Origin: Candidatus Nitrospira inopinata
Lineage (GTDB): Bacteria > Nitrospirota > Nitrospiria > Nitrospirales > Nitrospiraceae
Assembly (NCBI RefSeq): GCF_001458695.1
Contig: NZ_LN885086.1
Span: 1,950,001 to 1,982,000, forward strand
Direction: 5' to 3'
Length of the DNA: 32,000 bases
A program made the translations under genes and the position numbers. Below, in pieces: positions 13,981 to 30,902 of this stretch. How positions within the stretch are numbered: the stretch's first letter is position 1; the number at the start of each line of letters is the position of its first letter. The notes beneath the pieces were generated by a model that was given only the letters and a program-made list of their open reading frames with translations, was not told where the DNA came from and ran no database searches.

Positions 13981-13996
13981 GAGCGTCACAATCAAC

Positions 13997-14080
13997 CTAC
14001 CAAATACCTAAACCCATGAGAATCATACCGAGCGCAAGCCACCCCACCACACCCAGTGAAATGATCGATTCGACCGACAT
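13997..14080 (-). CDS. Possible 27-aa single-TM peptide (MSVESIISLGVVGWLALGMILMGLGIW)
   Basis: AAGGAG lies 8 nt upstream of ATG 14080. The stop is 1-16 nt before the lipoprotein start. The peptide is entirely hydrophobic. There is no other support. Confidence 0.3.
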   Translation of the reverse strand: MSVESIISLGVVGWLALGMILMGLGIW

Positions 14081-14576: not shown

Positions 14577-15911
14577 TTACTTTCCGTAGAGTGTAGCTGC
14601 GGAGGCATCGAAGATGTCTTTGGTGGTCAACGTGCCGGGCTCAAAAGGGTCGGTCCCCTTCTCCCATACGACGGTGATGTTCCCATCCGTTCTTCCCATT
14701 CCTTGAGTGGGAGATTTGGTGGCATTCCGTTCCACCAGCACCTCGACGTGTTTTCCGATATATCTGCGGTTGCGCTCAAGACTGATCCGCCGCTGGATGT
14801 CCACCAACGTCGCCACGCGGGCCCCTTTGACCTGATCGGGAACGTCGTCCGGGTATTTTCTGGCGGCGATGGTGTGTTTGCGCTCGGAATACTTGAAGAT
14901 GTAGGCGGACTCAAATTGAATCCGTTCCACCACCCGTTGGGTCTCCAGAAAATCGTCGTCCGACTCCGAACAGAACCCGCAAATGATGTCCGTCGTGAGG
15001 GTGACGGCGGGAATGAGCGTTCTTATTCGCTCCACGAGCGCCAGATATTCCCCGGCCGAGTACGTTCGGCCCATCAGCTCCAGGATACGGTCGCTTCCCG
15101 ATTGAAGCGGGAGGTGGATGTGTTTGCAAATCTTCGGATGGGTGGCGATGGCCTGAAGCAACGCGGGGGGAAAGTCCTTGGGATGGGGCGAGGTGAAACG
15201 AACTCGATGGATGCCGGGAGTATCCGCCACTGCGCCGATCAAGCGGGCAAAATCCCAGTTTCCGTACCGGTAGGAATTGACGTTTTGTCCCAACAGAGTG
15301 ATCTGGGTGAAGCCGCGGGCCGCCGCGTCGCGCGCCTCGGTCAGGATGGACTCCGGATCGCGCGATCGCTCTCGTCCCCTCGTGTAGGGGACGACGCAGA
15401 ACGAACAAAAGTTGTCGCAGCCCCGCATGACGGTAATCCAGGCGTTGACCCCGTCGTTTCGATCCGGGAGGATCCCTTCATAGGTTTCGTACTCCGAGAG
15501 ATCAAGCGCAAAGCCCCTTTGAGCGAATCCCTGCTCCTGAGCGGCCAGGGCGTTTGAAAGCAACAGGGGAAGCTCTCGATAGGCGTCCGGTCCGGCCAAG
15601 ATGTCGATGAGCGGTTCTTGCCGGGCCAGTTCGCTCTTCAGATTCTGCGCCATACAGCCCAAAACGCCGATCACCAGAGGACGTCGCTTCTTGATCTCCT
15701 TGAGCTCCGTCAGATGCGCGTAAATCTTGTTGTGGGCGTTCTCGCGGATGGCGCAGGTATTGACCAGAAGCACGTCGGCCCGTTCACGATCCGGCGTGAA
15801 CGAGAACCCCTCGCGCTTTAGCAGGGCGCGGACCAGCTCGCTGTCCGACTCGTTCATCTGGCAGCCGAAGGTCTCGATGTGGACCAGGCGGGGCAAGGGG
15901 GTCGCCGTCAT
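14577..15911 (-). CDS. miaB: tRNA-2-methylthio-N6-dimethylallyladenosine synthase MiaB (radical SAM methylthiotransferase)
   Basis: VHIETFGCQMNESDSE marks the UPF0004 domain. The radical SAM motif is CDNFCSFCVVPYTRGRERSR. A C-terminal TRAM-like region is present. The start at ATG 15911 overlaps the upstream stop (ATGA at 15908-15911). Confidence 0.92.
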   Translation of the reverse strand: MTATPLPRLVHIETFGCQMNESDSELVRALLKREGFSFTPDRERADVLLVNTCAIRENAHNKIYAHLTELKEIKKRRPLVIGVLGCMAQNLKSELARQEPLIDILAGPDAYRELPLLLSNALAAQEQGFAQRGFALDLSEYETYEGILPDRNDGVNAWITVMRGCDNFCSFCVVPYTRGRERSRDPESILTEARDAAARGFTQITLLGQNVNSYRYGNWDFARLIGAVADTPGIHRVRFTSPHPKDFPPALLQAIATHPKICKHIHLPLQSGSDRILELMGRTYSAGEYLALVERIRTLIPAVTLTTDIICGFCSESDDDFLETQRVVERIQFESAYIFKYSERKHTIAARKYPDDVPDQVKGARVATLVDIQRRISLERNRRYIGKHVEVLVERNATKSPTQGMGRTDGNITVVWEKGTDPFEPGTLTTKDIFDASAATLYGK

Positions 15912-17245
15912 GGTTGTATCACAAGGTTTGGGGGCCGCTGCGGAACAGCGACCTGTCCCATGACCCAACGGTCCGTTGCGGCCGTGATGGTGACCGGCTT
16001 GATCTGATTATGAAGGTCATCGGTGTCGGCGACGGCTACTTTCGTGAAGTTCGGCGTGGTACCGTGTCGGAGACCATCCTGAACGCCCGTTTCAAAGAGA
16101 ACGGGGACCGTCGTTCCAATCTGCCGGTGATGGAATGCGAGCTGCTTTATGCGCCCGATGTCGCGGAGGACGTCGACGCGCTTGCGGATGATCGAAGGCG
16201 ACACGGCTCGCTGCATGCGGGCTGCGGCGGTTCCCGGCCTCGGCGAATAGGGAAATACATGGAGATAAGAAAAAGGCAGATCCGTCGCGACCGAGACGGT
16301 ATTGCGAAACGCCGCCTCGGTTTCTCCGGGGAAGCCCGCCATCAGGTCGGTCCCCAGCCCGAGTCGAGGGATTTTGGCGACGGCCCGCTCGATCAAATCG
16401 ACGTAAGCCTTGACCGTATGGCGGCGGTTCATGGCGTTCAGGACGCCGTCGTCTCCGCTCTGCAAGGGGACATGGAGCGAGGGGCACAGTTTCGAAGATC
16501 CGGCCAGGAGATCCAGCAACTCGTCGCCGACGGTCGTGGGTTCGATCGACGAAATCCGGATACGGTCGATGCCGTCGACTTGGTCAAGACGCCGGAGCAA
16601 CGAGCAAAAATCTCGGCCGTCGTGAACGTACCGTCCGATGTTCACGCCGGTCAGCACGATCTCCCGATAGCCGCGTGCGGCCAGGCCGGTCGCCTCTTCC
16701 AGAATGTCCTCGAGTCTTCTGCTCCGCTCGTGCCCTCGCGAAAACGGAATGATGCAAAAGCTGCACATGACGTTACAGCCGTCCTGGATCTTGAGGGGCG
16801 CTCTGGTTGAATCCGGCTCGCCGAAGTAAGGAAGATCGAAGTCTTGGCGCGATAGCGTCTTTGTATGGAGAATTTCCGGCGAACGGCGTTTCTCCAACGC
16901 ATCGGCCGGGGGCAGGTACGCCGGCAGATCCAGCTTGAATTGGTTGCCGACGACCAAGTCGATGCCGGCCTCGCGGGTGAGCCGCTCCAAGCCTATTTGA
17001 GCGTAACAGCCGGTCACGGCAATGAACGCATGGGGGGAATGTTTGAGGGTTTTGCGGATCAGATACCGCGACGTGCGTTCGGCGTCCTCCGTCACCGCGC
17101 AGGTGTTGAGCACGAGCAGGTCGGTCGGCCGGCCGAACTCCACCAACTCAAACCCCTTTCGGCGAAGTCCTTCCCCCAACACTGCCGACTCCGCGAGGTT
17201 CAATCGGCACCCCAACGTATGGAGCGATGCCCGGCGACTTGTCAT
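15908..17245 (-). CDS. mtaB: MtaB-like threonylcarbamoyladenosine tRNA methylthiotransferase (radical SAM)
   Basis: Motifs present are SLHTLGCRLNLAESA and CNVMCSFCIIPFSRGHERSR. The start is set at MTSRRASLHTLGC (17245). The longer ORF extension runs into the upstream pseudogene remnant. Confidence 0.85.
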   Translation of the reverse strand: MTSRRASLHTLGCRLNLAESAVLGEGLRRKGFELVEFGRPTDLLVLNTCAVTEDAERTSRYLIRKTLKHSPHAFIAVTGCYAQIGLERLTREAGIDLVVGNQFKLDLPAYLPPADALEKRRSPEILHTKTLSRQDFDLPYFGEPDSTRAPLKIQDGCNVMCSFCIIPFSRGHERSRRLEDILEEATGLAARGYREIVLTGVNIGRYVHDGRDFCSLLRRLDQVDGIDRIRISSIEPTTVGDELLDLLAGSSKLCPSLHVPLQSGDDGVLNAMNRRHTVKAYVDLIERAVAKIPRLGLGTDLMAGFPGETEAAFRNTVSVATDLPFSYLHVFPYSPRPGTAAARMQRAVSPSIIRKRVDVLRDIGRIKQLAFHHRQIGTTVPVLFETGVQDGLRHGTTPNFTKVAVADTDDLHNQIKPVTITAATDRWVMGQVAVPQRPPNLVIQP

Positions 17246-17329
17246 AAGACGAGCATTATAGAGACGGCGCTCCCGTTTGGGCAAGCTCGTGGAAGCGAGG
17301 GGTTTGGCGTGCATGTCAGCCTCGGCTCC

Positions 17330-17720
17330 GTCGGGCATAGGTGGCAAGCCCCGCCAGAGGGCGGCGCCGAACAGATACCAGGCCGCCGGCAGGGCACCGG
17401 CTTAAGACGCACCAGCCAGGCCTCCGCCTGGCCATTGGGATTGAAGCCATATCCCACAATCGCTTGCCCGTTGGGAGAAATGGCCGTGGCGTGTGTCAAG
17501 CACTAGCCGGTGAGGGAAGAGCCAGGCCATAGTCGGTGGTCAAGACGTCGAAGAGGGACCTCATGCCGTGCGCTTGATCCCATAAAAGGCCTTAAACCCA
17601 TTGGCGGAATCGCTCTACCCCACGATCACGGTCCCATCAATGGAAACTCGAGGACCTGCAATCAGCGACTTTTTCGACCGGCAGTAACCGCAACTGACAG
17701 GCTCGCTGACCGGAATTAGC
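17330..17720 (-). pseudogene. Decayed 3' part of a HAF-repeat / PEP-CTERM protein gene
   Basis: The minus-strand translation needs at least 2 frame changes and crosses at least 3 stops. It reads VSIDGTVIVG*SDSANGFKAFYG, then GMRSLFDVLTTDYGL, then LTG*CLTHATAISPNGQAIVGYGFNPNGQAEAWLV, then KPVP and (in another frame) AWYLFGAALWRGL. These are the HAF repeat and PEP-CTERM patterns. Confidence 0.55.
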
Positions 17721-18123
17721 TGCTACCGAACCAAGAATCCATCGGGCGGGCCTGTAATCCTTCGCCGTGGACCGGGATTATTGCAATTCATCCAGATAAG
17801 GTCAGATCGGGAGTTCGGTCCTGCAGTTCACTGGCGTGGATCGGGTCGAGTTGATTGGGAACAGGGCTTTTCGACTTCGCGAAATTTCTGCACAGCCGCG
17901 TCGGTGTTTCGCTGCCATTGCCGACAACGTGCCCTGCATCCGTCCCCGAGCTGGTCGAGATACCGGAGCCTCTCGTAATCCCACGCCCCGAAGAGTAGGT
18001 CCGTGGTCAAAGGGGTCAAACGCCTGGCCCAAACCTATCCCCTGCTCGATAAGAGCAAGATGCTCAACGACATCTCGGCGCCGGTGATGCAGCACGTCAT
18101 CCAAGGTCGCGATGCCATGGAAG

Positions 18124-19188
18124 TCATCGACGAGCTTGAGATCGTGTTTCAGCGCCATTACGCGCGGTTGAGGAAAACGAATTGCACTCGGGCTGCGCGT
18201 TAGCCGGGTTCCGTTTTCGTCGTGCTATGCCGATCATTCCGACCAGTCCTGACCCGAACAGCCAGATTGCGGCGGGCACGGGCACAGCTGGCGCAAATCC
18301 AGGATAGGCGTAACCGTTCGCCGAGGTGTAGTTGTAGCCGCCATCGACGCGGATGCCGAGATAGGCCGAGTTCACGGACGAAACATAAGCACTGCCGCAG
18401 TTGCTGCCGAAATCGCAGGCACCGCCGCCACTGATCGAGATGGCGAAGTCGAACGGTTGTGCCCCGCTGCCGAAAATGACGGGAATCGAAAAAGAAGTTT
18501 CGAACACGCCGGGGATGGCGGAACCCGAGTCGCCGCCGCCCATGATGTCCGACCAACCATAATTGGAATAATTGGTGATATTGTTCTCGGCATCGCGCGT
18601 GGACTGACGCGTGGCATCAAAACTGAACAGCAATTGATTATAATCGCAGATATTGCCGTCGCAGCTCCGGGTAAGAATCGAGTAATTGAAGTCGGAATAG
18701 GCGGCTGCACCCGCCAAGTCGTCGAGCGTGGCATGCAACGACAGATCGATATGGACATCGAAAGTCACTGTGCCGACTCCTAAGAGTCCTGCGCGACTGA
18801 TCGAGTCCGTCATGCTCATGTCGACACTGCCGCTCCCGCCGCCGATTTCGCCTGCATACAACTGAAAATGTCCCGCTCCGGCGTCCATTTCCGCCTGGGC
18901 GAATCCAAATGGTGAGATGACCCCGCTAAAACAGTTAGGACCGATGCTGGGAAGGCAGGGATGGCCTCCCGGCATTACATGGGCCGTCCCGCCAACTGCG
19001 TCTCCGTGTAGGATCAATGCGCCCGGAGCATTGAGTAATAAGGCGTCCGATGCTTCGTTAGTGGAAACCGACATGGACAGACTGGCCGAGGCCGGATTCG
19101 GTACCAGCGCCCCACACAACATGAGCATGGCTACCGACAGGCGGACGGACCGGTTGTGTTTCTGAAGAAACATTGAGCTGCTATTCAT
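18124..19188 (-). CDS. PEP-CTERM sorting-domain secreted protein (354 aa)
   Basis: A signal peptide is present (SVRLSVAMLMLCGALVPNPASA). The body is Gly/Ser/Asp-rich. VPVPAAIWLFGSGLVGMIGIARRKR is a canonical PEP-CTERM signal, but 28 further residues follow it. Confidence 0.85.
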   Translation of the reverse strand: MNSSSMFLQKHNRSVRLSVAMLMLCGALVPNPASASLSMSVSTNEASDALLLNAPGALILHGDAVGGTAHVMPGGHPCLPSIGPNCFSGVISPFGFAQAEMDAGAGHFQLYAGEIGGGSGSVDMSMTDSISRAGLLGVGTVTFDVHIDLSLHATLDDLAGAAAYSDFNYSILTRSCDGNICDYNQLLFSFDATRQSTRDAENNITNYSNYGWSDIMGGGDSGSAIPGVFETSFSIPVIFGSGAQPFDFAISISGGGACDFGSNCGSAYVSSVNSAYLGIRVDGGYNYTSANGYAYPGFAPAVPVPAAIWLFGSGLVGMIGIARRKRNPANAQPECNSFSSTARNGAETRSQARR

Positions 19189-19570
19189 AAATTCCCTTTC
19201 AATTGGTTAAAAGAACAATAAATTCAATTTGTTTTGGCGCTCATTGCGGAGAAATGATGCATCCAGGCGTTACGCCTGGACTTACGCCTCACAGATGATC
19301 CGATTCCCTCGACGCTCCTCCGTGCAGCTCATTTCCACTCCCGTCACATCCGCTCCAAACATCTCCGCTCATGCTCCGCCCTTTTTTATGGTAGGTAGTA
19401 GGTAGATGGTGAAGGCACGCTGGTGATCATGATGGCCTGTGTCTGAGCCGAACTCATCCCACCCTTCTAGCCATGGCCCCAGCTTGATCCTGCCGGCCCG
19501 GCCTGGTTCGGCCTGACAAACCAGCCGATTTTATAGCCCCCTTACCGTTAGGAAGTCAAACTCTTCAAAA

Positions 19571-19593
19571 GGGGGGAAGGGTGAGGGGGAGGG
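19571..19593. repeat. G-tract element, copy 2 (GGGGGG-AA-GGG-TGA-GGGGG-A-GGG)
   Basis: See copy 1. It lies in the divergent region between the PEP-CTERM gene and the 19704 gene, immediately upstream of a TGGTAAAAT extended -10 (19605-13). Confidence 0.7.
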
Positions 19594-19703
19594 CATGGTA
19601 AACATGGTAAAATGGGCAGCCGTTTGAAATTTCATCGGCTGCTTGTTCCGTGTTCCGGAAAGAAGCTTTGTCCTCATAGAAGAAAGGCTGCTGAGAAAAA
19701 ACA

Positions 19704-20120
19704 GTGTTTCGATTGGTTGTCACACTTGCCCTGTGGGGCGTTTTGCTTTCCGGCATGGAGAGTGGATGGGGGTCGTCGGCCCTGGCTGCAGATCAGCTTC
19801 CCGTCGAGCCGGACGTGGGCACCCGCCTGGATGAGCTGTATGACCATGAGGCCCGGCTCTTTATTGCGCTCTATTCTCTGGCCGGTGACGGCCGGATCGA
19901 CTATGTGACGGCCCGAGTGGTTCGGGAATATGCCCGCAGCGCCTATGGAAATCCCGTCTACCAGACGGAGGCTCAGCCCATCTTTTATTGGTGGAACCAC
20001 ACGATGTGGAACGATCCCGAGCAGGACGGAGTCAACGGCAACGAACGGGTCTATCAAGAGAACACGGATTTTGATATTTCCCGCTATAAGCCCTGCTCGT
20101 TCAACGGGCAGTCCTGCTGA
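19704..20120 (+). CDS. Secreted hypothetical protein (138 aa)
   Basis: GTG start. The signal peptide is MFRLVVTLALWGVLLSGMESGWGSSALAA. The mature part is Trp/Tyr-rich and ends in CSFNGQSC. The RBS is weak. Confidence 0.55.
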   Translation: MFRLVVTLALWGVLLSGMESGWGSSALAADQLPVEPDVGTRLDELYDHEARLFIALYSLAGDGRIDYVTARVVREYARSAYGNPVYQTEAQPIFYWWNHTMWNDPEQDGVNGNERVYQENTDFDISRYKPCSFNGQSC

Positions 20121-20238
20121 TCCGCAGCCGTTTCCGAACGTATTTCCCCTTACACATTTCGAGATTCTGCTGAAGAACCGCGGCGGCGATGATATGCTCC
20201 CCCGTACGTATGGGCTCGTTTGACGCGAGTGCTGCTTC

Positions 20239-21501
20239 GTGACCGACTCCACTTTCCAGTCTCGCTTCATCAATCGGCGTCTCGCCGTGATGTTGCCGTT
20301 GGGCTTCGTTTCGGGGCTCCCGCTTGCCCTGACCGCCGGTACCTTACAAGCCTGGCTGACGGTGGAAGGCGTCGATCTCAAAACGATCGGCGTGTTTACG
20401 CTGGTCGGTCTCCCCTATACGCTGAAATTTCTCTGGGCTCCACTTATGGATCGGGTCGTTCCCCCCTGGTTTGGGCGGCGCCGCGGATGGATGGTATTGA
20501 CGCAATCCTGCGTCGCGGCCGGGTTGGCCTTGATGGCGGCGACCGGTCCGCGCGATCATCCCGAGACGTTGGCGGTCCTGGCGCTTTTGGTGGCGTTTTT
20601 CTCTGCCTCGTTGGACATCGTCTTCGACGCCTACCGCACGGAGACGCTTCATCCCCATGAGCGGGGGTTGGGCGCGGCGGTCTGGGTCAACGGGTACCGA
20701 ATGGCGCTGTTGGTCGCCGGCGCTGGCGCCTTGATGTTGGCCGACGTTGTCGGCTGGCAAGCGACCTATCTGGTCATGGCGGCCGTCATGGCGGCGGGGC
20801 TTGTCGCGATCGTGGTGAGCCCGGAACCGATTCGGCTCGCCGATCCTCCAAAGAGTCTCGCCGAGGCCGTGGGCGCTCCCGTGAGAGAATTCTTCTCCAG
20901 GCCCCAAGCGGTGGGATTCTTGGCTGTGGTCGTGTTGTACAAACTCGGCGATGCCTTCGCGTCCTCGCTCCAGACCGCGTTTCTCATCGGAGGAGTCGGT
21001 TTCTCGTCCGTGGAAGTCGGGACGGTGAAGGGGGTCGGGATCTTCGCCACGCTCGTTGGCGCTTTACTCGGAGGAGCGATGATGACGAGGATGAGCCTCG
21101 TTTCCTCGCTCTTGCTCTTTGGCTTGTTGCAAGCGGTGTCGAATCTGGGATTTGCCGTCGTGGCCCTGATGGAAAAAAGCGCCGCCGTCCTGACGGCGGC
21201 GGTCGTGGTCGAAAACGTGACGGGTGGAATGGGGACGGCCGCCTTTGTGGCGTTGGTGATGTCGCTGTGCGATCCGCGCTACACGGCGACCCAATTCGCG
21301 CTGCTGTCGTCTCTTGAGGCGTTGGGGCGAGTCTTCGCGGGTCGTCCGTCCGCCGGTCTTGTGGAGGCGGTCGGATGGGCGGAGTTCTTTGTCCTAACCT
21401 TTGCGGTGGCTTTGCCGGGTCTCTTGGCGGTTTGGTCTCTCAGGCGTCACATCGAGCCGGAAGAAAGGAACGACGTTCCTGGCTTGCCCCGCGCCGTATG
21501 A
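20239..21501 (+). CDS. ampG: AmpG-family muropeptide MFS permease
   Basis: LGFVSGLPLALTAGTLQAWL...IGVFTLVGLPYTLKFLWAPLMDR is the AmpG N-terminal signature. The 420-aa protein is multi-TM throughout. Confidence 0.88.
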   Translation: MTDSTFQSRFINRRLAVMLPLGFVSGLPLALTAGTLQAWLTVEGVDLKTIGVFTLVGLPYTLKFLWAPLMDRVVPPWFGRRRGWMVLTQSCVAAGLALMAATGPRDHPETLAVLALLVAFFSASLDIVFDAYRTETLHPHERGLGAAVWVNGYRMALLVAGAGALMLADVVGWQATYLVMAAVMAAGLVAIVVSPEPIRLADPPKSLAEAVGAPVREFFSRPQAVGFLAVVVLYKLGDAFASSLQTAFLIGGVGFSSVEVGTVKGVGIFATLVGALLGGAMMTRMSLVSSLLLFGLLQAVSNLGFAVVALMEKSAAVLTAAVVVENVTGGMGTAAFVALVMSLCDPRYTATQFALLSSLEALGRVFAGRPSAGLVEAVGWAEFFVLTFAVALPGLLAVWSLRRHIEPEERNDVPGLPRAV

Positions 21502-21543
21502 TCTTATTCGGTTGGGCGAGCTTCGGAAAGGTCGGGGCATGAG

Positions 21544-21933
21544 ATGAGTCTTGCCCGTTTAGCTTTCTTGGTGGTGATCCTTGCCGGAGCGGTTTGGGCG
21601 GCATGGTCGAATCCGACGACGGACGACTATGTCCGGTTCGTCGAATCGGAGTTGCGCCGGGCACTCGATCGACTGGATGAACGGACTTCCGCGCGGGATC
21701 AACGGCTCATTCACGAGGTCATTCGCGCTCAGAGCAAGCAACTCATGGACGGCGTCGTTCGACCGGCCACGATTCGAAAAAATCGGGGGCTTTTCAGTTG
21801 GTATGAAACCCAGGTGGCCGGGACCAAGGTGGTCGTGCTCGGGATCGGTGGCCGGTTTGTCCCGATCAGCGGAGCGGAGGAAGCGGCAAAAACAATCGAA
21901 CGGCTGCTGCAAGAAAGGTCCTATAGGTCCTGA
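21544..21933 (+). CDS. Membrane-anchored hypothetical protein (possibly DUF4359-like)
   Basis: It has a single N-terminal TM helix (LARLAFLVVILAGAVWAAW) followed by a soluble ~100-aa domain. The family assignment is tentative and from memory. Confidence 0.6.
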   Translation: MSLARLAFLVVILAGAVWAAWSNPTTDDYVRFVESELRRALDRLDERTSARDQRLIHEVIRAQSKQLMDGVVRPATIRKNRGLFSWYETQVAGTKVVVLGIGGRFVPISGAEEAAKTIERLLQERSYRS

Positions 21934-21957
21934 TGTGCCTCGCCAACTCGGTGCTCC

Positions 21958-21966
21958 TGTGGATAA
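21958..21966 (-). promoter_or_regulatory. DnaA box (perfect TTATCCACA on the minus strand)
   Basis: TGTGGATAA at 21958-21966 is the exact reverse complement of the consensus. Confidence 0.6.
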
Positions 21967-22023
21967 CCGACTCCAATCAAGGTAAAACTCAGGATAAAAT
22001 CGGCCCTAAAACCGTAGAGCCGC

Positions 22024-22032
22024 CTATCCACA
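22024..22032 (+). promoter_or_regulatory. DnaA box (CTATCCACA, 8/9)
   Basis: One mismatch to TTATCCACA. It is inverted relative to the first box and lies about 40 nt upstream of the nrdJ -35. Confidence 0.5.
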
Positions 22033-22058
22033 GGCTACCCCCAAATTTCACAGAGACC

Positions 22059-22105
22059 CCACTATATTTAGTGTTGACAAAAAAAGTCGATAGCTATATG
22101 TAGTC
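22059..22105 (+). promoter_or_regulatory. Tandem NrdR boxes flanking and overlapping a sigma70 promoter (TTGACA at 22074-22079, TATGTA at 22097-22102) of nrdJ
   Basis: Box 1 is cCACTATATTTAGTGt (22059-22074). Box 2 is aTAGCTATATGTAGTc (about 22090-22105). Both are A/T-core palindromes resembling ACACnATATATnGTGT. Their centres are about 31-32 bp apart (three helical turns), the published NrdR operator geometry. Confidence 0.7.
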
Positions 22106-22237
22106 TCTCCACTGTTTGGCGGTCATGAAAGTGAGAGGAGGAAGAAGCTCTCATGTGTTTATGGCCAAGCTCACAGAGGACACATGCTACGTTGGCTCGC
22201 AATGCCGGGCGGTTCTGTTTCCACAAGGAGGAATCCC

Positions 22238-25200
22238 GTGAGGATTGAACGAAGATTCACCCATCGCGGTCGGAGTCCCTACGACGGAATCACGTTTGTC
22301 AAACGGTCGTCCGAGATTCGCAATCCGGACGGATCCGTCGTATTCAAGCTCGACAACATCGACGTGCCGGAGCAATGGTCTCAATTGGCCGTCGATATTT
22401 TGGCTCAGAAATACTTCCGAAAAGCGGGGGTTCCTCAGTGTGATCAGCAGGGGCAAACGCTGACGGGACCGGATGGGAAGCCCCTGTTGGGCGGGGAACG
22501 CGACGCGCGCCAAGTCTTCGAGCGAATGGCCGGATGTTGGACGCACTGGGGAAAGTCCTACGGCTACTTCACAACGCCGGAGGACGCCGAGGCTTTCCAC
22601 GATGAAATGTGTTACATGCTGGCGCGGCAGATGGCCGCCCCGAACTCCCCGCAGTGGTTCAACACGGGCCTCCATTACGCGTATGGTTTGTCGGGCCCCG
22701 CGCAGGGGCACTATTATGTCGATCCCGCCACCCGCGAGGTCGTCAAGGCGACGAACGCGTTCGAGCATCCCCAACCCCATGCCTGTTTCATTCAGTCGAT
22801 CGAAGACGATCTGGTCAATGAGAACGGGATCATGGACCTTTGGGTCCGTGAGGCGCGGCTGTTCAAGTACGGCTCCGGGACCGGCACCAACTTCTCCAAA
22901 CTGCGAGGCGAGGGGGAGGGACTGTCCGGCGGAGGCAAGTCGTCGGGCCTCATGTCTTTTCTCAAGATCGGCGATCGGGCCGCCGGCGCGATTAAATCGG
23001 GCGGAACGACCAGGCGCGCCGCCAAGATGGTCTGTCTGGACCTGGACCATCCCGACATCGAAGAGTTTATCGAGTGGAAGGTCGTTGAGGAACAGAAGGT
23101 CGCGGCGATGGTGACCGGGTCGAAAATTTGCGCGCAACGCCTGAACGGCGTGCTGAAGGCCTGCCACGTCGTCGACGGCCAAGGAGCCTTGAAACTGGAC
23201 CTCGATCCCAAGACGAATCCGATCTTGCGGGAAGCCCTGGCGCAGGCGCGAAGAGACATGGTGCCGGAGGCCTATATCCAGCGGATGTTTTCCTACGCGC
23301 AGCAGGGGTTCACGCACTTCGTCTTTCACGAATACGACACCAACTGGGACGGCAAGGCCTATCAAACCGTGTCGGGACAGAATTCAAACAACAGCGTGCG
23401 AATGCCCAACGAGTTTTTCGCCGCCCTTGACGCCGACGGCGATTGGCATCTCACGCGCCGGATCGACGGCAAGGTCTGCAAAACCCTCAAGGCCCGCGAT
23501 CTGTGGGATCGGATCGCCTGGGCCGCGTGGGTCTGCGCGGATCCCGGCACCCAGTACGATACGACGATCAACGAATGGCACACCTGTCCGGAAGACGGGC
23601 GAATCAATGCGTCGAACCCCTGTTCGGAATACATGTTTTTGGACGACACGGCCTGCAATCTGGCCTCGCTCAACCTGGCGGCGTTTTATACCGTCGATGG
23701 GCGGTTCGAGTTGGAAAACTTCCGGCACGCCGTGCGGCTGTGGACGATCGTGTTGGAAATCAGCGTGTTGATGGCGTCGTTTCCCAGCCGGTCGATCGCG
23801 GAGAAGAGCTATCGGTTCAGAACGCTCGGCTTGGGGTATGCCAATTTGGGCACGGTGTTGATGCGTCAAGGGATTCCCTATGATTCACCCAAGGCCCGCG
23901 CGATCTGCGGCGCCATCAGCGCCATCATGACCGGCGAGGCCTACGGCACGTCGGCGGAAATGGCCGCCGAATTGGGGCCGTTCCCGGGCTACGCGAAGAA
24001 TCGCGATCACATGCTGCGGGTGATCCGCAATCACCGCCGGGCGGCCTACAATGCCCCGCGCGAGGAATATGAGGGACTGACGATCAAACCGACGGGGATT
24101 CAACCGGAGAATTGCCCGCCCGATCTGCTGATCGCCGCCAGACGGGCGTGGGACCGGGCGCTCGAGCTGGGGACGGCCTACGGGTATCGCAACGCGCAAG
24201 TGACGGTCATCGCGCCGACCGGCACGATCGGGTTGGTGATGGATTGCGACACCACCGGGATCGAGCCGGATTTCGCCCTGGTGAAATTTAAGAAATTGGC
24301 CGGCGGCGGGTACTTTAAGATCATCAATCAGAGTTTGCCCCTCGCGCTGTCGACGCTGGGGTACACGGAGGGACAAGTCCAGGACATCGTGCGCTACTGC
24401 GTCGGTGCGCAAACCCTTAAACAGGCGCCGTTCATCAACCATGAATCGTTGCGGTCGAAGGGATTCGACGACGAAGCGCTGGCCCGTGTCGAAAACGGCC
24501 TGGCCCAGGCGTTTGATATCCAGTTTGCCTTTAACAAATTCATGCTGGGGGAGTCCTTTTGCACGGAGAAATTGAGGTTCAGCGAAAGCCAATTGAACAG
24601 CCCCTCCTTCAACATGCTCAAGGCGCTCGGCTTCACGCAGGAAGAAATCGCCGCCGCGAATGATTATTGTTGCGGGACGATGACGGTGGAGGGGGCGCCG
24701 CACTTGAAGGCCGAGCACCTTCCGGTCTTCGACTGCGCCAATCGCTGCGGTCGGATCGGCCGCCGCGCCATCGCCGTCGATGCCCACATCCGCATGATGG
24801 CCGCGGCGCAGCCGTTCATCAGCGGCGCGATCAGCAAGACGATCAACATGCCGCACGACGCCACGGTCGAAGACGTCAAGAACGCCTATCGGCTGGCCTG
24901 GGAAAGCATGGTCAAGGCGGTGGCGATTTATCGGGACGGCTCGAAACTGAGCCAGCCGTTGAGCGCCTCGACCGATAACGGAAAAACGGCGGAGGCTTCG
25001 GGCGCGGTGGAGGCGGTCGCGGAGAAGGTCACCGAGCGCGTGCTGGTCCGATACCTGGCCAAGCGGCGGCCGTTGCCGAGCCGGCGGAACGGCTATACGC
25101 AGAAGGCGATCATCGGCGGTCACAAACTGTATCTCCGAACCGGCGAATATGAGGATGGGACCGTCGGCGAAATCTTCCTCGACATGCACAAGGAAGGGGC

Positions 25201-25765: not shown

Positions 25766-26062
25766 TGGAGAAAGGGCCGCGCTCTAAGTGGAGCCTCCCG
25801 ACCGGTGAGCATGGCCCTTCCCGCTACCATGCCGCTACACCGATCGAATCATCGGAGAATGGCGCGGGCATCATCTGCACGAATCTGTCTGGCAGCGTGC
25901 CTTCAGGGTAGCCTGACGAACCGGGGCGGTCGGGGAATCCACAGCCCCCGGCTGACCGCCTGTGATAGGACCTGCCAACACCCTGGCAGATAGGGCAGAG
26001 AGCTGTGAAGGTGCGCCGGGAGAGGCTGACCAATCTACTCAATAGTTAGGTGCTTCCCATCA

Positions 26063-26884
26063 ATGAAGACATTTAGTCAACGCAAAGGGTTGAAGCCCGT
26101 CTCAGAGGTCATTCAAGTGACTTGGATGAGCGAGGAACTGCGCAACTCGTTGTGGAATGCGCTGGATACGGCGCTCTGGTCATCCGAAAATTTCGTCTGG
26201 CGCCAGCACGGTGAGCCACATATCGAGCCCTTCAGTAGGTCGTTGTGGTTCCATTACTTCAAGAAACCAATTGATTCGCGTCCCGACCAAAACGACGAGA
26301 TCCTCGGTGAGATTCGCAGATACTTCTTTGCCTGTGAATGGTACGAGGTCTACGATTTTCTTGAGTTTGTAGTCGCAGACTTTGCCCGTTCAAAACCGAG
26401 ATTGGCCGAGTATCTAAACTCGATCCTCGGGAGAGACCTTTCCGGCTATCGCTTTATTTCGGGGACGCTGGTTGATATCACGAACGAACAGGAAGTCCAA
26501 CTCCTCGACGAGGCGCTTGCGGACACGCGTTTTGTGGGTGTGTCCGCTCACCTCAAGCGCTCTCTAGAACTACTCGCCGATCGAGATAATCCTGATTATC
26601 GCAATTCAATCAAGGAATCTATCTCTGCGGTTGAGAGTATGGCTCGAATCATGACGGACAACTCCAAAGCGACTCTCGCTGATGCGCTTAAGGTGCTCGA
26701 AAAGAGTGGTCGCCTACATCCCGCTCTAAAGGAGGGATTTCTTAGGCTTTACGGGTACACGAGCGATGAGCAAGGCATCCGTCATGCGATGCTGGATGAA
26801 CCGAACTTGACTTCCGCCGACGCCAAATTTTTTCTCTTGTCGTGCACCTCGTTTGTTAACTACCTTAAGTCACAGGTGCCGTGA
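26063..26884 (+). CDS. AbiJ-N-terminal-domain (NTD4-like) protein with C-terminal HEPN-like domain, 273 aa
   Basis: The N-terminus MKTFSQRKGLKPVSEVIQVTWMSEELRNSLWNAL matches my memory of AbiJ-NTD4 proteins. The C-terminal helical domain carries YRNSIKESISAVESMAR and LYGYTSDEQGIRHAM (Arg/His dyad). G+C is much lower than in nrdJ. Confidence 0.6.
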   Translation: MKTFSQRKGLKPVSEVIQVTWMSEELRNSLWNALDTALWSSENFVWRQHGEPHIEPFSRSLWFHYFKKPIDSRPDQNDEILGEIRRYFFACEWYEVYDFLEFVVADFARSKPRLAEYLNSILGRDLSGYRFISGTLVDITNEQEVQLLDEALADTRFVGVSAHLKRSLELLADRDNPDYRNSIKESISAVESMARIMTDNSKATLADALKVLEKSGRLHPALKEGFLRLYGYTSDEQGIRHAMLDEPNLTSADAKFFLLSCTSFVNYLKSQVP

Positions 26885-26992
26885 ACGCACCTAACCTCTG
26901 CGTGCAGCGGACGCGTGTGAAGCAGCGTTGTGCTTTGCCAGCATCGTGCCCGCGCGCCGCTGACGCAGGTCGTTAGAGTGCAGGAAAAACAC

Positions 26993-27337
26993 ATGGCGAT
27001 ACCTACATACAAAGACATTGTCGAGTTGATAAAGAAAGGTGCCACCGTTGAGGCACAAGAAAGAATCATGGAGCTTCGTGAAGCTGTCCTTGAGCTTCAA
27101 GAAGAGAATGTCGCCTTGAAGCAAAAGAACCGGGAGTTGGAAGAAGCGCTAAAACTGAAGGGCGAACTCCACTTCGATGGGGCAGTGTATTGGCAAAACG
27201 AGAACAACAATCGTGTAGGGCCGTTTTGCCCCCAGTGCCTCGATGTCGATGAAAATCTGGTTCGGCTCCAGAATTACAATGATGCGTGGTATTGCACCAA
27301 GCACCGACAACCATACAATAAACAGTCAGGCCGGTAG
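26993..27337 (+). CDS. Hypothetical coiled-coil + C-terminal zinc-ribbon-like protein (114 aa)
   Basis: Taken from ORF 26930..27337, with the start at ATG 26993 (AGGAAA upstream). The heptad helix is EAQERIMELREAVLELQEENVALKQKNRELEEALKLK. The C-terminus carries CPQC...(18 aa)...CTKH. Confidence 0.6.
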   Translation: MAIPTYKDIVELIKKGATVEAQERIMELREAVLELQEENVALKQKNRELEEALKLKGELHFDGAVYWQNENNNRVGPFCPQCLDVDENLVRLQNYNDAWYCTKHRQPYNKQSGR

Positions 27338-27451
27338 CGCATGCACTCTAACTCGTTGTTCGTTCCGAGGCCAGAGACAGCGCGCCATGTTTCCTGTTGT
27401 TTCTGTGGCCGGCGCGGCACAACAACACGTTAGGCCACATGAAGAGCACCC

Positions 27452-27871
27452 ATGACGCGCTACGATCCTCTGACGAAAGAAGAACGAAGTGAGCGCATGT
27501 CGCGCGTTCGTAGCATCGACTCCAAACCGGAGTTGGTGGTACGCTGCCTTGTCCACAGCATGGGATACCGATACCGGTTGCACTCCGGCCGCCTACCCGG
27601 AAATCCGGATCTCAGCTTTAGTTCCAGGCGCAAGGTCATCTTCGTGCACGGGTGTTTCTGGCATCAGCACGGCTGCCGGAAGTATCGGATGCCAAGAACG
27701 CGAAAAGACTTCTGGGAGCCAAAACTTGAGAGAAACAAAGTGCGTGATCGTAAGGTCAGGGCGGAATTGCGAGCGATGGGGTGGCAAGCGATGGTGATCT
27801 GGGAATGTCAGACAAAGAACCAAGATAGACTGCAGCATCGACTCGTCGCTTTTCTGGAGCGTTCACGATGA
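27452..27871 (+). CDS. vsr: Very-short-patch repair endonuclease Vsr
   Basis: RSERMSRVRSIDSKPE, LPGNPDLSF, IFVHGCFWHQHGC, FWEPKLERNKVRD and VIWECQ are collinear with E. coli Vsr. Confidence 0.93.
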   Translation: MTRYDPLTKEERSERMSRVRSIDSKPELVVRCLVHSMGYRYRLHSGRLPGNPDLSFSSRRKVIFVHGCFWHQHGCRKYRMPRTRKDFWEPKLERNKVRDRKVRAELRAMGWQAMVIWECQTKNQDRLQHRLVAFLERSR

Positions 27872-29070
27872 GACAAGTGCGATCCGTCGAACTCTTTACA
27901 GGGGCCGGGGGACTTGCCCTAGGCCTCGAGAAGGCTGGTTTCCGTCACGATGCCTTGATCGAAGTTGACGAGCATGCCTGTTCGACTATCCATTTGAACG
28001 AATCCTTGGGACACCCGCTAGCCAAGGGATGGCGATTGTTCGCCGAGGACGTTCGCGGTGTTCAATACGAGAACGTGGTCAAGGGCGTGGATGTAAATAT
28101 GGTCGCTGGGGGACCCCCATGCCAGCCCTTTTCGCTTGGCGGCAAGCATCGCGCCTTTAAGGACCGGCGGGACATGTTCCCCGAAGCCGTGCGAGCAGTG
28201 AGAGAGTTGCGGCCACGTTGCTTCCTGTTTGAGAACGTCAAGGGCTTGCTGAGGCAGAGCTTCGCTACCTACTTCAACTACGTCATTCTGCAGTTATCCT
28301 ATCCAACCCTATCCAGGAGAGAGAATGAGAGTTGGGAGTCCCATCTCTCGCGGCTAGAGCGATGGCATACAAGTGGCAGGAGTAGTGAACTGTTCTACCG
28401 CGTGGTTTATCGGCTGCTGAATGCGGCGGACTATGGTGTGCCGCAGAACCGGCATCGCGTCTTTATCGTAGGCTTCCGGTCTGACCTCGAATGCGAGTGG
28501 TCGTTCCCCAAGCCGACGCACAGCATTGAGCGCCTCCTGTGGGCACAGTGGGTTGACGGACGATACTGGGACGAACACGAGGTTTCCAAGAAGGCCCGGC
28601 CGCCAATGCCGCCGCGTTTCCGGTCCCGCGTTGATCGACTTGCTTCGGATTATGGTTTGTTCGAGCCGCCAGGCCTCCGGTGCCGCACCGTGCGCGATGC
28701 GCTGAAGGGGTTACCTGATCCAAGAGACAAGCGTCACGCTGTCCCCAATCACGAATTTCGGGATGGCGCGCGCCCGTATCCCGGCCACACTGGAAGCGCG
28801 CTGGACGAGCCCGCGAAGGCGCTGAAGGCCGGTGATCACGGCGTGCCTGGGGGAGAAAACATGGTCGCCCTGCCGGACGGCGGCTGCAGGTACTTCACCG
28901 TTCGCGAGAGCGCGAGATTGCAGACATTTCCGGATGACTACCTCTTTAGCGGTTCGTGGACCGAGGCGATGCGCCAAGTTGGGAACGCTGTCCCTGTCGA
29001 ACTTGCCGCCGCAGTCGGGCAGAGCGTCATGGCCCAGCTTCGAGCAAGGAGCGCCGATGCCTCCCGATAG
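27868..29070 (+). CDS. dcm: DNA (cytosine-5)-methyltransferase
   Basis: Motif I is ELFTGAGGLALG, IV is GGPPCQPFS, VI is ENVKGL, VIII is QNRHRVFIVG and X is GNAVPVELA. ATGA overlap with vsr. Confidence 0.95.
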   Translation: MRQVRSVELFTGAGGLALGLEKAGFRHDALIEVDEHACSTIHLNESLGHPLAKGWRLFAEDVRGVQYENVVKGVDVNMVAGGPPCQPFSLGGKHRAFKDRRDMFPEAVRAVRELRPRCFLFENVKGLLRQSFATYFNYVILQLSYPTLSRRENESWESHLSRLERWHTSGRSSELFYRVVYRLLNAADYGVPQNRHRVFIVGFRSDLECEWSFPKPTHSIERLLWAQWVDGRYWDEHEVSKKARPPMPPRFRSRVDRLASDYGLFEPPGLRCRTVRDALKGLPDPRDKRHAVPNHEFRDGARPYPGHTGSALDEPAKALKAGDHGVPGGENMVALPDGGCRYFTVRESARLQTFPDDYLFSGSWTEAMRQVGNAVPVELAAAVGQSVMAQLRARSADASR

Positions 29071-29737
29071 GCCGAAACGAATCCAGCCTTTCAATCCGCT
29101 CGACAAGACGAATCTCGGTGAGAGTGTCGCTGGGGCACTTCTGCAGCAACCGGCGGGCCCGCTTCCGCCTGCGGAGCCATTCATTGGCGCCGGCGTCTAT
29201 GCCATCTATTACGACGGACCGTTTCCCTTGTATAAGGACATTGCGGAGCTTAATCGGAATGGCCGTTTTGGTTGGCCTATTTACGTTGGCAAGGCGGTAC
29301 CAGCCGGTGCGCGGAAGGGCGGATATGGTCTTGGAGCCGATCCGGGCCAAGCTTTGTTCAAACGCCTAGCCGAGCATGCCAGCTCGATTGAGCAGGCCAA
29401 CGATCTCGAAAGCGAGCATTTCAAGTGCCGATTCTTGGTTGTGGATGACATATGGATTCCGCTCGCGGAGTCGCTACTAATCGAAATGTTCTCGCCGTTG
29501 TGGAACAAGAGGATCGATGGCTTCGGCAATCATGATCCGGGCAAAGGGCGGTACAACCAACAGCGCTCTCTGTGGGACGAACTTCATCCGGGTAGGGCTT
29601 GGGCTGCCAAACTGAAGCCCCTTGAAGGCAATTTGCCTTCAGTTCGAGAGGGCGTTGCGGAGTATCTCACAAAAGCAAAGGCCGCGATTGTGGCCCAACA
29701 ACGCGCTGCAGCCGACACCGCAAAGCGGCGCGGCTGA
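29057..29737 (+). CDS. GIY-YIG restriction endonuclease, Eco29kI-like (226 aa)
   Basis: Taken from ORF 28832..29737, with the start at ATG 29057 (CAAGGAG at 29045-29051). It overlaps dcm by 14 nt. GVYAIYY...(about 25 aa)...PIYVGKA gives the GIY-YIG halves, followed by RLAEH, ESLLIEMF and GFGNHDPGKGR. The family call is from memory. Confidence 0.7.
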   Translation: MPPDRPKRIQPFNPLDKTNLGESVAGALLQQPAGPLPPAEPFIGAGVYAIYYDGPFPLYKDIAELNRNGRFGWPIYVGKAVPAGARKGGYGLGADPGQALFKRLAEHASSIEQANDLESEHFKCRFLVVDDIWIPLAESLLIEMFSPLWNKRIDGFGNHDPGKGRYNQQRSLWDELHPGRAWAAKLKPLEGNLPSVREGVAEYLTKAKAAIVAQQRAAADTAKRRG

Positions 29738-29776
29738 GCGCGAACGTTAGACGTCAAGGAGATCAGGAGGACGCAA

Positions 29777-29971
29777 GTGGACCCACTTACCGACGACCAG
29801 ATCCTACAGATGTTCCGAGACTTCGGCCTTGGATCCGAGGGTGAGCGCCGCCGCTTTCTCTCTGAAGCTCAGCTTGAGACCATGGCTGGCGCGCCGGGGC
29901 GCGCCCAGGTCTTCATTCGTGTTGAGTCGACTACGAGTCCGCGAGAGGGACGCCATGCCGAGTTGGCATAG
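29777..29971 (+). CDS. Small hypothetical protein (64 aa) coupled to the downstream protease
   Basis: GTG 29777 has AGGAGG (29765-29770) 6 nt upstream. The gene overlaps the protease start by 17 nt. I recognise no motif. Confidence 0.55.
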   Translation: MDPLTDDQILQMFRDFGLGSEGERRRFLSEAQLETMAGAPGRAQVFIRVESTTSPREGRHAELA

Positions 29972-30902
29972 CATCCTCGAAGACATTCGCAGGCGAGGTA
30001 GCATTCACGACGTCATCCGTCGTGAGTACCTGGCGAAGCTTCACGAGGTCACAGGCCGAAACGTGATCGTGTACTACTCCGGCTGGCTCCAGAAGCCCGG
30101 CCTCCCAGGTGTTCACGTCAATGACGCAGACAAGAACGGTTTCATGACGGCGATCCACCAGCTTGATCGGTCGAAGGGACTTGATTTGCTCTTGCACACG
30201 CCGGGCGGGGAGACCGCCGCCACCGAGTCATTAGTGGACTACCTGTATTCGATGTTCGGACCGAATATACGTGCGATCGTGCCGCAGATCGCTCTCTCCG
30301 CCGGGACAATGATCGCGTGCGCTACACGCGAGATTCTCATGGGCAGGCACTCAAGCCTGGGGCCAATCGATCCACAGTTCGGCCCAACGCCAGCTCACGG
30401 AATTATCGAAGAGTTCAAGCGAGCCCATGCGGAGATCAAGGCCGATCCGTCGAAGATCCACGTCTGGCAGCCGATTATTGCGAAGTACGCGCCGACGCTC
30501 ATCGGCGAATGCGAAAAGGCGATCAAGTGGTCTATCGACATGACGCGGGACTGGCTTCTTCGCGTGATGCTCGCCGACGAGCCCGATGCTAAGGCGAAGG
30601 CAGACGCGATCCTGGCAGAACTCGCGGATCACGCACTAACGCTGTCGCATGCGAGGCACCTGTCGGCGGAGAAGTGCAAGGCGCTCGGCCTGAAGATCAC
30701 TATGTTGGAAAGTGACCAGAGATTGCAGGAGGCGGTCCTATCGGTCCACCATGCTCTGATTCACACTCTCGGGGCGACAGGTGCCTTCAAGATCATCGAG
30801 AACCACCTCGGCGTTGCGTTCATTCAGATGGCGCAGACTGTCATCATGCACGGGCCAGCGGGGCAGCCGCCGGTCGCTGAGCTCGCGCCGCATGACGTCT
30901 AA
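29955..30902 (+). CDS. SDH-family (serine dehydrogenase proteinase, PF01972-like) Clp/SppA-fold serine protease, 315 aa
   Basis: Taken from ORF 29829..30902, with the start at ATG 29955 (MPSWHSILEDI...). VIVYYSGW, LDLLLHTPGGETAA, ALSAGTMIACA (nucleophile Ser) and LGPIDPQ are collinear with the ClpP/SppA fold. Confidence 0.8.
   Translation: MPSWHSILEDIRRRGSIHDVIRREYLAKLHEVTGRNVIVYYSGWLQKPGLPGVHVNDADKNGFMTAIHQLDRSKGLDLLLHTPGGETAATESLVDYLYSMFGPNIRAIVPQIALSAGTMIACATREILMGRHSSLGPIDPQFGPTPAHGIIEEFKRAHAEIKADPSKIHVWQPIIAKYAPTLIGECEKAIKWSIDMTRDWLLRVMLADEPDAKAKADAILAELADHALTLSHARHLSAEKCKALGLKITMLESDQRLQEAVLSVHHALIHTLGATGAFKIIENHLGVAFIQMAQTVIMHGPAGQPPVAELAPHDV

Follow-up and report, generated by a model that had tools for sequence, protein, structure and literature searches.

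A probable mosaic of accessory cassettes inserted between nrdJ and an ACT-domain gene in Candidatus Nitrospira inopinata

The DNA considered here is a 32,000-nucleotide stretch of the genome of Candidatus Nitrospira inopinata (contig NZ_LN885086.1, positions 1,950,001 to 1,982,000; in the following the window, to which all positions refer unless stated otherwise), in which seven genes on the same strand follow nrdJ, the gene for a ribonucleotide reductase (Table 1). A comparison with related genomes suggests that these seven genes are probably the left two-thirds of a strain-specific insert of about 8.5 kb in a spacer of about 250 bp between nrdJ and an ACT-domain gene, and that this insert is likely to be composed of five or more cassettes that differ in origin and move independently, and not to be one element. 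The final 2.3 kb of the insert lie beyond the end of the window. For this part the sequence of contig CZLC01000025.1 (L081; GCA_001458715.1) was used, which is identical to the window from position 16063, and coordinates termed window-equivalent extend the window numbering along this contig past position 32000. The comparison set consisted of 80 loci with a relative of nrdJ, each surveyed within 10 kb, and the profile sets used were Pfam, PADLOC v2, NCBIfam (with curated cut-offs where quoted) and phrog.

The original prediction, made from the letters of the window, described a low-G+C defence island without an integrase, located between nrdJ and a very G+C-rich amidohydrolase gene. The seven same-strand open reading frames (ORFs) it listed between 26063 and 30902 are indeed present, and its domain calls agree with Pfam, PADLOC and NCBIfam, the exception being the HEPN status of the first gene.

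Table 1. Features of the insert and its junctions (aa, amino acids; R-M, restriction-modification; IS, insertion sequence; w.-e., window-equivalent coordinates)
Feature	Position	Strand	Evidence or remarks
Left junction, non-coding	25796..26062	.	no counterpart in empty-site relatives
g1, 273 aa, AbiJ_NTD4 plus helical C-terminal domain	26063..26884	+	Pfam, PADLOC PDC-S32
g2, 114 aa (135 aa from GTG start at 26930)	26993..27337	+	N-terminal helix/coiled coil, C-terminal CxxC...CxxC/H zinc ribbon
vsr, very-short-patch T:G mismatch endonuclease	27452..27871	+	Pfam Vsr 98 bits; TIGR00632 140 bits vs cut-off 97.85
dcm, C5 cytosine DNA methyltransferase (M subunit)	27868..29070	+	Pfam DNA_methylase 196 bits; PADLOC MTase_II E 3e-138
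Eco29kI-family GIY-YIG Type II restriction endonuclease, 226 aa from ATG	29057..29737	+	Pfam RE_Eco29kI, PDB
g6, 64 aa, small partner of SDH protease	29777..29971	+	no family; small-ORF conservation upstream of protease
g7, 315 aa from ATG, SDH-type ClpP-fold serine protease (phrog_11747)	29955..30902	+	Pfam, phrog, AF2/fold search
Secreted amidohydrolase, 453 aa	31014..32375 (w.-e.; window ends 32000)	+	part of insert, not host flank
73-aa hydrophobic/small membrane ORF	32466-32687 (w.-e.)		gene call on L081
IS3 element	32738-33939 (w.-e.)		47-nt imperfect inverted repeats
IS3-family transposase	32754-33866 (w.-e.)	-	NF033516 304 bits
Right junction	~34270 (w.-e.)		ACT gene start 34508 (w.-e.)

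An ACT-domain gene, RlpA and CorC come next after nrdJ in 28 Nitrospira relatives, and in 12 of 29 spacers between nrdJ and the ACT gene the distance amounts to only 172-251 bp, whereas in the genome studied here the ACT-RlpA-CorC trio is found 8.7 kb downstream of nrdJ. The breakpoints can be placed by comparison with two relatives. On the left side, homology (94% nucleotide identity) to Nitrospira sp. JZ-3_Bin7 (L001), the closest genome in a one-genome-per-species collection with 94% DNA identity over the shared parts, ends at position 25795, 30 nt past the nrdJ stop codon. On the right side, homology to a second relative (L005) restarts at window-equivalent 34271 (position 18209 of L081), 237 nt before the ACT gene. 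Since these 30 and 237 nt together reconstitute the ancestral spacer, the insert comprises about 8.5 kb (25796 to about 34270). Neither any of the seven genes nor the amidohydrolase gene occurs within 10 kb in any of the 80 nrdJ-relative loci. That the genes are foreign to the locus, as originally proposed, is thus supported by the empty nrdJ-ACT junction of relatives, and the contrary observation, presence of the same genes at this place in all relatives, was made at none of the 80 loci. The right boundary, however, had been drawn too early: the amidohydrolase gene, the 73-aa ORF and the resident IS3 are likewise missing after nrdJ in every one of the 80 relatives, with L001 having only a different IS3-like transposase ORF there (41% amino acid identity to the resident one), and therefore the real boundary is the ACT gene, the insert continuing about 3.4 kb further than the amidohydrolase boundary and taking in all three features.

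With respect to mobility, no integrase was found within 10 kb on either side of the insert, a scan for tRNA and tmRNA genes returned none, a Rfam scan matched no family, and no convincing direct or inverted repeats flank the insert as a whole, the only matches besides the IS3 inverted repeats being short and at chance level. Of the features by which classical integrative islands are recognised, an integrase, a tRNA or tmRNA target and flanking direct repeats are therefore all lacking, with the IS3 DDE transposase as the sole mobility gene, while absence from close relatives and an identifiable empty site are both observed. The earlier statement that integrase, transposase, tRNA and direct repeats are missing accordingly holds for the part inside the window but not beyond it, as a DDE transposase of the IS3 family follows about 750 bp past the window end. 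Because there is neither an integrase nor an att-like repeat, entry of the DNA by recombination at the conserved flanks in combination with IS activity is probable, and the insert would have accumulated in this way and not by the action of an integrase.

A more prominent role of the IS would be that IS3-family transposition delivered or assembled the segment as such, the IS3 at the right end and an older IS remnant at the left end forming a degenerate structure similar to a composite transposon. An intact IS3 with 47-nt inverted repeats does abut the insert. In addition, the same island, which is present in many metagenomes, is followed in one metagenome contig (L086, 7230-11360) by the same IS3 and then by PEP-CTERM and AsmA/DUF748 genes and not by ACT-RlpA-CorC, so that the same IS joins the island to another right flank, which is indicative of a rearrangement linked to the IS or of a strain variant. 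Finally, the left junction contains a 56-nt stretch (25979-26033) which is 89% identical to positions 19188-19243 of L001, where it is found inside a different insert and sits directly 3′ of an IS3-like transposase ORF. However, this stretch has no similarity to the resident intact IS3, and there is no inverted repeat that would mark it as an IS end, for which reason it was rejected as such. Furthermore, the resident and the L001 transposases are only 41% identical, and neither a target-site duplication nor direct repeats on the flanks could be detected, so that delivery or assembly by IS3-family transposition appears very unlikely.

The nrdJ-ACT junction carries 0.5-5.9 kb of other DNA in several relatives, and more than 5.6 kb in L001. 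The cargo comprises a tautomerase and a zinc alcohol dehydrogenase (ADH) in L003, AsmA/DUF748, topoisomerase IB and RidA in L025, a DegP-type protease in L042 and an unknown 448-aa protein in L005, and the inserts of these four loci and of L011 gave no significant match to a PADLOC system. L001 has a different insert (13613-23579) coding for PsiE, a 4Fe-4S ferredoxin, a ParE toxin, an IS3-like transposase, a fragment of a Mutator-family transposase and a CsgG-like protein, and ACT-RlpA-CorC could not be found within 10 kb downstream of its nrdJ. Variable hotspots that are flanked by core genes, lack an integrase and collect defence as well as accessory genes are familiar from the pangenomes of E. 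coli and Pseudomonas. The junction described here resembles them in its conserved flanks (nrdJ and ACT-RlpA-CorC), in a spacer that ranges from empty to 8.7 kb, in its lineage-specific cargo and in the lack of an integrase or a tRNA. In contrast to these hotspots, the cargo in the relatives is mostly metabolic or housekeeping-like, and conflict-type genes are found only here and, in part, in L001. A defence hotspot is therefore not supported as a description of the site, as the relatives sampled hold non-defence cargo, and the junction is a general accessory-gene site and not a dedicated defence site.

The plasticity of the site, with other DNA in several relatives, might also be read to mean that the segment is ancestral at the locus and has been lost from the other Nitrospira lineages. 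This is highly improbable, however, as the 28 relatives which keep nrdJ and ACT adjacent are spread across the genus and have no island gene within 10 kb, as the 94%-identical sister L001 has a different insert, and as the island genes are closer to other phyla than to the Nitrospira relatives.

The base composition allows for a distinction of the insert from its surroundings only in part. The G+C content of 26063-30902 is 0.567 in comparison to 0.596 for the remaining window, and the lowest 1.5-kb value of the whole 32 kb is reached in the segment that begins at 26001 (0.516, about 2.9 standard deviations under the mean). Clearly low values are limited to about 25.9-27.5 kb, i.e., to the first 1.5-2 kb of the insert, and the entire insert (0.593) does not differ from the locus (0.590). 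Gene by gene, the G+C content proceeds in steps from 0.48-0.51 (g1 and g2) to 0.55-0.60 (R-M genes and g6-g7) and 0.66 (amidohydrolase). The G+C content at third codon positions (GC3) is 0.686 ± 0.074 for the non-island genes and 0.595 for g1, 0.56-0.57 for g2, 0.63 for vsr, 0.68 for dcm, 0.60 for the nuclease gene, 0.74 for g7 and 0.86 for the amidohydrolase gene. In composition dcm, g6 and g7 are host-like, dcm and g7 also lying within the host range of GC3. Once sliding-window G+C and GC3 are computed, the claim of a low-G+C island thus survives for the first 1.5-2 kb and fails for the insert as a whole, which equals the host value. The hand counts behind it had overdrawn the contrast, since g1 has 0.507 and not 38-48%, nrdJ 0.604 and not 68%, and the amidohydrolase gene 0.659-0.666 and not 78%.

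Apart from the insert, the G+C content of the window also dips to 0.52-0.53 per kb at 13500-15000, and the minus-strand ORF at 14023-14412 (129 aa), with the lowest values of all window ORFs (GC 0.50, GC3 0.47), may be another foreign gene.

The genes for Vsr, the C5-methyltransferase and the GIY-YIG nuclease constitute a complete Type II R-M cassette next to an Abi-type candidate, so that the known R-M system of the original prediction is present, and the cassette, with profile scores far in excess of the curated cut-offs for all three genes, is of a known type. The nuclease scores 226.8 bits with the RE_Eco29kI profile (cut-off 30.8) and E 3e-69 with PADLOC REase_II, and matches the Eco29kIR structures 3MX1, 3MX4 and 3NIC (E 5.5e-41 for 3MX4), with which its GIY and YIG motifs can be aligned (GVYAIYY and PIYVGKA here, GVYALYY and PIYVGKA in 3MX4). 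Adjacent genes overlap by 4 nt (vsr and dcm) and 14 nt (dcm and nuclease), and vsr, M and R genes in the same order and with the same overlaps are found on a Paraburkholderia plasmid beside integrase, PIN and SIR2 genes. According to this composition the methyltransferase would protect a short palindrome, the GIY-YIG nuclease would cut unmodified incoming DNA, and Vsr would repair the T:G mismatches that arise from the deamination of 5-methylcytosine.

The cassette resembles the Eco29kI system, which recognises CCGCGG, in the family of the nuclease, in the alignment of its GIY and YIG motifs and in the adjoining, overlapping C5-methyltransferase gene, and since the nuclease belongs to an Eco29kI-like family CCGCGG is a plausible palindrome. 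It differs from the Eco29kI system in its chromosomal location, in its occurrence in a nitrifier and in the low identity of the nuclease. Two observations count against a firm assignment of this recognition sequence. The nuclease shares only about 41% of its residues with the enterobacterial plasmid enzymes and reaches 59% identity with its best plasmid match, and because the identity to named enzymes is just 41-59%, a CCGCGG specificity is only putative. In addition, although the sequence contains 15 CCGCGG sites in contrast to 29.5 ± 4.9 in shuffles, relatives devoid of the cassette have a ratio of observed to expected sites of 0.74, as compared with 0.78 here. As the site is equally rare in these relatives, its rarity is uninformative, and CCGCGG avoidance was rejected as an indicator of the activity of an Eco29kI-like system.

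The first gene of the insert, g1, had been called AbiJ-NTD/HEPN-like, of which the AbiJ part is retained. Residues 3-153 match AbiJ_NTD4 (PF18863) with 133 bits (cut-off 34), and the full length of the protein (residues 1-271) matches the PADLOC candidate PDC-S32 (PDLC04997, E 4.8e-110). AbiJ-NTD4 was defined as a domain that precedes AbiJ-type HEPN domains in fusion proteins, and for AbiJ-type proteins the coupling of a sensor or antitoxin N-terminal domain to a suicidal RNase was proposed (Anantharaman et al. 2013, PMC3710099). Besides the AbiJ-NTD4 domain and the full-length PDC-S32 match, g1 has in common with this family its predicted architecture of an N-terminal sensor and a helical C-terminal effector and its solitary occurrence in variable regions. 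Relatives with 63-74% identity are solitary genes, e.g., in Jeongeupia, and a copy in a metagenome-assembled genome adjoins an integrase and HigBA. By family analogy g1 is probably a single-protein abortive-infection sensor-effector, in which recognition of a phage component by the N-terminal domain would release a C-terminal, possibly HEPN-like RNase, toxin.

The HEPN part, however, could be recovered neither by profile nor by motif, and several points tell against the assignment of such a function to g1. Residues 150-273 match no Pfam HEPN family even at E ≤ 10, and the C-terminal domain is without the Rx4-6H motif, which is required for HEPN catalysis (PMC3710099). Foldseek matches to HEPN structures are weak, all with E > 0.6 (1wol, 2hsb, Csm6 and Las1), the match to 2hsb having a target-normalised TM of 0.62 and a probability of 0.69. 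PDC-S32 is itself one of 145 "guilt by embedding" candidates and explicitly untested (Payne et al. 2024 preprint, 10.1101/2024.01.29.577857), and the literature searched held nothing relevant on it. A PDB sequence search with the C-terminal domain also found nothing. What is invariant in this domain, and sets it apart from the AbiJ-type proteins with a Pfam HEPN match and an Rx4-6H motif, is an adjacent pair R240-H241 in addition to R180, E185 and H219. The AF2 model (pLDDT 82) shows a C-terminal part made up of helices, with R240-H241 in a low-confidence loop.

For the second gene, g2, co-location with R-M and Abi-type genes had been taken to indicate a defence candidate. Homologues of g2 fall into 119 clusters, none of which has a Pfam domain. 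Within the family the N-terminal helix is unusually conserved and C79, C82 and C101 are invariant, the coiled-coil profile matches all being sub-threshold. The homologues are solitary, and four independent contexts, namely next to a methyltransferase, HicB and IS110, in a prophage-like region of Marinomonas, in a housekeeping stretch of Ferriphaselus and beside MiaB-PhoH-YbeY, have no neighbour in common, for which reason a functional link to g1 or to the R-M cassette was rejected. With contexts that are unrelated and often housekeeping, the defence candidacy of g2 can no longer be maintained and the gene is best treated as hitch-hiking cargo. In its length of about 115 aa, its N-terminal coiled coil and its C-terminal Cys/His zinc site g2 is reminiscent of YabA, and one homologue is named 'regulator of replication initiation timing' by JGI. 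An identification as YabA (PF06156) was rejected at 13.5 bits (cut-off 30, E 0.11), and in contrast to the conserved replication-control gene, g2 is a patchy, solitary accessory gene.

The last two of the seven genes, g6 and g7, code for a small protein and a protease. By its Pfam match (SDH_protease, PF01972; 72.5 bits, cut-off 31.3), g7 belongs to the SDH-type proteases, and its entire length is covered by the match to phrog_11747 (E 7e-90). Its AF2 model (pLDDT 85) matches ClpP and SppA structures at a probability of 1.0 with a target-normalised TM of about 0.6. In alignments of 37 and 47 sequences HTPGG, S115 (in SAGT), GPxDPQ, H232/R234/H235, H265 and K279 are invariant. With 82.9 bits g7 stays under the cut-off (250) of the NCBIfam SDH equivalog NF047768, and as it is well under both this and the head-maturation cut-off, it forms a subfamily of its own. 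A phage prohead protease was rejected on the basis of 24.6 bits with NF045542 (cut-off 120) and of the accessory positions of the gene in phages. The best viral fold matches are SDH proteinases of giant viruses, which are uninformative on function. The family comprises at least about 8000 clusters (90% identity) at E 1e-5, and relatives at least 70% identical occur in Thiomonas, Blastocatellales, Ardenticatenia, Latescibacterota and other lineages.

A small ORF lies directly upstream of the protease gene in 71 of 72 metagenome loci, and 66 of these ORFs match a hidden Markov model built from g6 relatives. The same arrangement is seen in viral, phage and plasmid sequences, at 43 of 44 non-redundant loci, including those whose protease has no more than 40-50% identity. 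The small ORF usually overlaps the protease start. In the window the overlap of 17 nt (29955-29971) encodes in two frames both the C-terminal HAELA of g6 (H-A-E/K-L-A/E) and the N-terminal MPSWH of g7, and because the same 17 nt encode them both ends are conserved across phyla. The overlap itself is thus conserved, which implies translational coupling. The g6 relatives further share an N-terminal motif (I..MF..LGL..E.R) and a Ser/Thr-rich strand (FIR..STT, or V.YSS.T in distant members). A single-sequence search with g6 among 1.84 billion representatives returned only 15 small stand-alone relatives of 61-88 aa, with no informative fusions among them.

The protease cassette was found in 65 IMG/VR contigs. 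None of three sequenced phages has the protease gene within an annotated head-assembly module, its neighbours being accessory or hypothetical genes. A Mu-like Shewanella phage has it flanked by the late regulator C and the lysis genes, in Porphyromonas phages it adjoins HicAB, and in the Gordonia phage BeeGee it is placed between tail genes and the integrase, which follows about 4 kb downstream. In a 44-kb P. aeruginosa record from a plasmid collection it adjoins an integrase, on a Klebsiella plasmid it is found amid lambdoid-type genes (DnaB-like helicase, RusA and antiterminator), and on an Acidiphilium plasmid beside an IS1 element and a RES-Xre pair. The Klebsiella homologue of the cassette had no DNA match in complete E. 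coli genomes. Type I R-M genes directly adjoin the protease gene in the loci L094 and L219 and lie 2.6 kb away in L200. Among 150 neighbouring ORFs from 39 metagenome loci, Type I methyltransferases (4) are followed by mad2/mad8 (3), Type IIG enzymes (3), integrases (3), Mrr (2) and Y2 transposases (2), and a CBASS-type S_4TM effector is also found among them.

From this conservation we regard g6-g7 as a real, mobile and uncharacterised two-gene unit, probably acting by regulated proteolysis. The conserved strand motif and the coupling suggest that g6 serves the protease as substrate or pseudo-substrate, and g6 may thus set the activity or the target of g7 as a substrate, a pseudo-substrate inhibitor or an adaptor. 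It is plausible that the unit plays a part in conflict, be it defence, superinfection exclusion, addiction or anti-defence, the likeliest role being that of an accessory module of mobile elements in conflicts between phage and host or between phages. The original suggestion that both unassigned modules of the island are candidates for anti-phage functions is thus strengthened for g6-g7, a conserved mobile pair often found next to Type I R-M genes, and weakened for g2.

With SppA, the protease domain of NfeD (1510-N) and the prohead proteases g7 shares the ClpP/SppA fold, the HTPGG and SxGT motifs with the invariant serine and the membership in Pfam SDH_protease. It differs from them in that neither a signal peptide nor a membrane anchor is annotated, in its accessory position in phages and in its obligatory small upstream partner. 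To our knowledge, no such partner has been described for SppA, the NfeD protease domain or prohead proteases. Conflict modules that contain proteases include type II toxin-antitoxin systems controlled by proteolysis, effectors of Lamassu, CBASS and type III CRISPR systems and retron-associated proteases. The g6-g7 pair is similar to these in being a coupled two-gene cassette on prophages, plasmids and islands, often next to toxin-antitoxin and R-M genes, but has no relationship to a PADLOC model and no nucleotide-sensing, ATPase or reverse-transcriptase partner. It might tentatively be proposed that g6-g7 is a previously undescribed conflict system, in which disturbance of the pair would unleash or redirect proteolysis and so block a phage or a competing element. 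We consider this proposal rather doubtful. With regard to a role of g6-g7 in conflict in general, the neighbour census, with Type I methyltransferases on top, has no matched control, PADLOC v2 contains no model for either gene, and the literature searched yielded nothing relevant on SDH-type, S49 or ClpP-like proteases in defence. Moreover, carriage on prophages is equally compatible with a role that benefits the phage, such as anti-defence or the control of lysogeny.

Taken together, the insert is likely to consist of at least five cassettes, which would be g1, g2, the vsr-M-R genes, the g6-g7 pair, and the amidohydrolase gene with the small membrane ORF, capped by the IS3. Separate acquisition is suggested by the occurrence of the cassettes alone elsewhere and by the stepwise G+C profile. 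For each cassette, relatives with 60-75% identity are found in other phyla, where their surroundings are unrelated. The amidohydrolase gene and the 73-aa ORF are best regarded, like g2, as hitch-hiking cargo. Against a mosaic it may be argued that, with all genes on one strand and tightly spaced, the cassettes could be co-transcribed and functionally linked here. A promoter consensus scan for operon definition gave no promoter-like sites, and terminator-like matches were not above shuffled controls.

The same orientation and close spacing, together with the presence of a known R-M system and of a PADLOC candidate, the lowest-G+C 1.5 kb of the window at 26.0-27.5 kb and the lack of an integrase and a tRNA, are also what would be expected from the scenario originally put forward, i.e., a single coherent low-G+C island of seven genes without an integrase, in which all modules are anti-phage. 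However, the amidohydrolase gene, the 73-aa ORF and the IS3 are equally missing from the relatives, which moves the boundary to the ACT gene, the G+C content of the whole insert equals the host value, the cassettes each occur alone elsewhere, g2 has no association with defence, and the same site holds non-defence cargo in relatives. A single coherent island is therefore unlikely and, for boundary and coherence, already largely refuted, and a mosaic of separately acquired cassettes remains the preferred reading.

Three further observations were made outside the insert. Positions 17287-19790 of the window have no counterpart in the 94%-identical L001, which has 228 bp instead, and this stretch of 2.5 kb, holding a 354-aa minus-strand ORF (18124-19188) with no Pfam match on record, is a second strain-specific insertion in the window. 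For nrdJ the public gene calls disagree on the start (22184-22240), with products of 1175, 1187 or 1193 aa, and no B12 riboswitch or other Rfam element was found upstream of the gene. Finally, in two Nitrospiraceae (L037, 10001-14653, and L044, 10001-14704) the nrdJ match extends over about 4.65-4.70 kb instead of 3.54 kb, and this excess length suggests an intein or another insertion within the ribonucleotide reductase gene.

On the whole, the island is one more stack of accessory genes at a plastic site, with an R-M system of a familiar type and one catalogued candidate, and adds to the documented defence repertoire of the complete ammonia oxidiser and model organism Candidatus Nitrospira inopinata. 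If the R-M system is an active 5-methylcytosine system, this would be relevant to the genetic manipulation of N. inopinata. The g6-g7 pair, being abundant, strongly conserved, mobile, only 1.1 kb in size and missing from both PADLOC v2 and the literature searched, is the sole part of the insert with a real potential for novelty.

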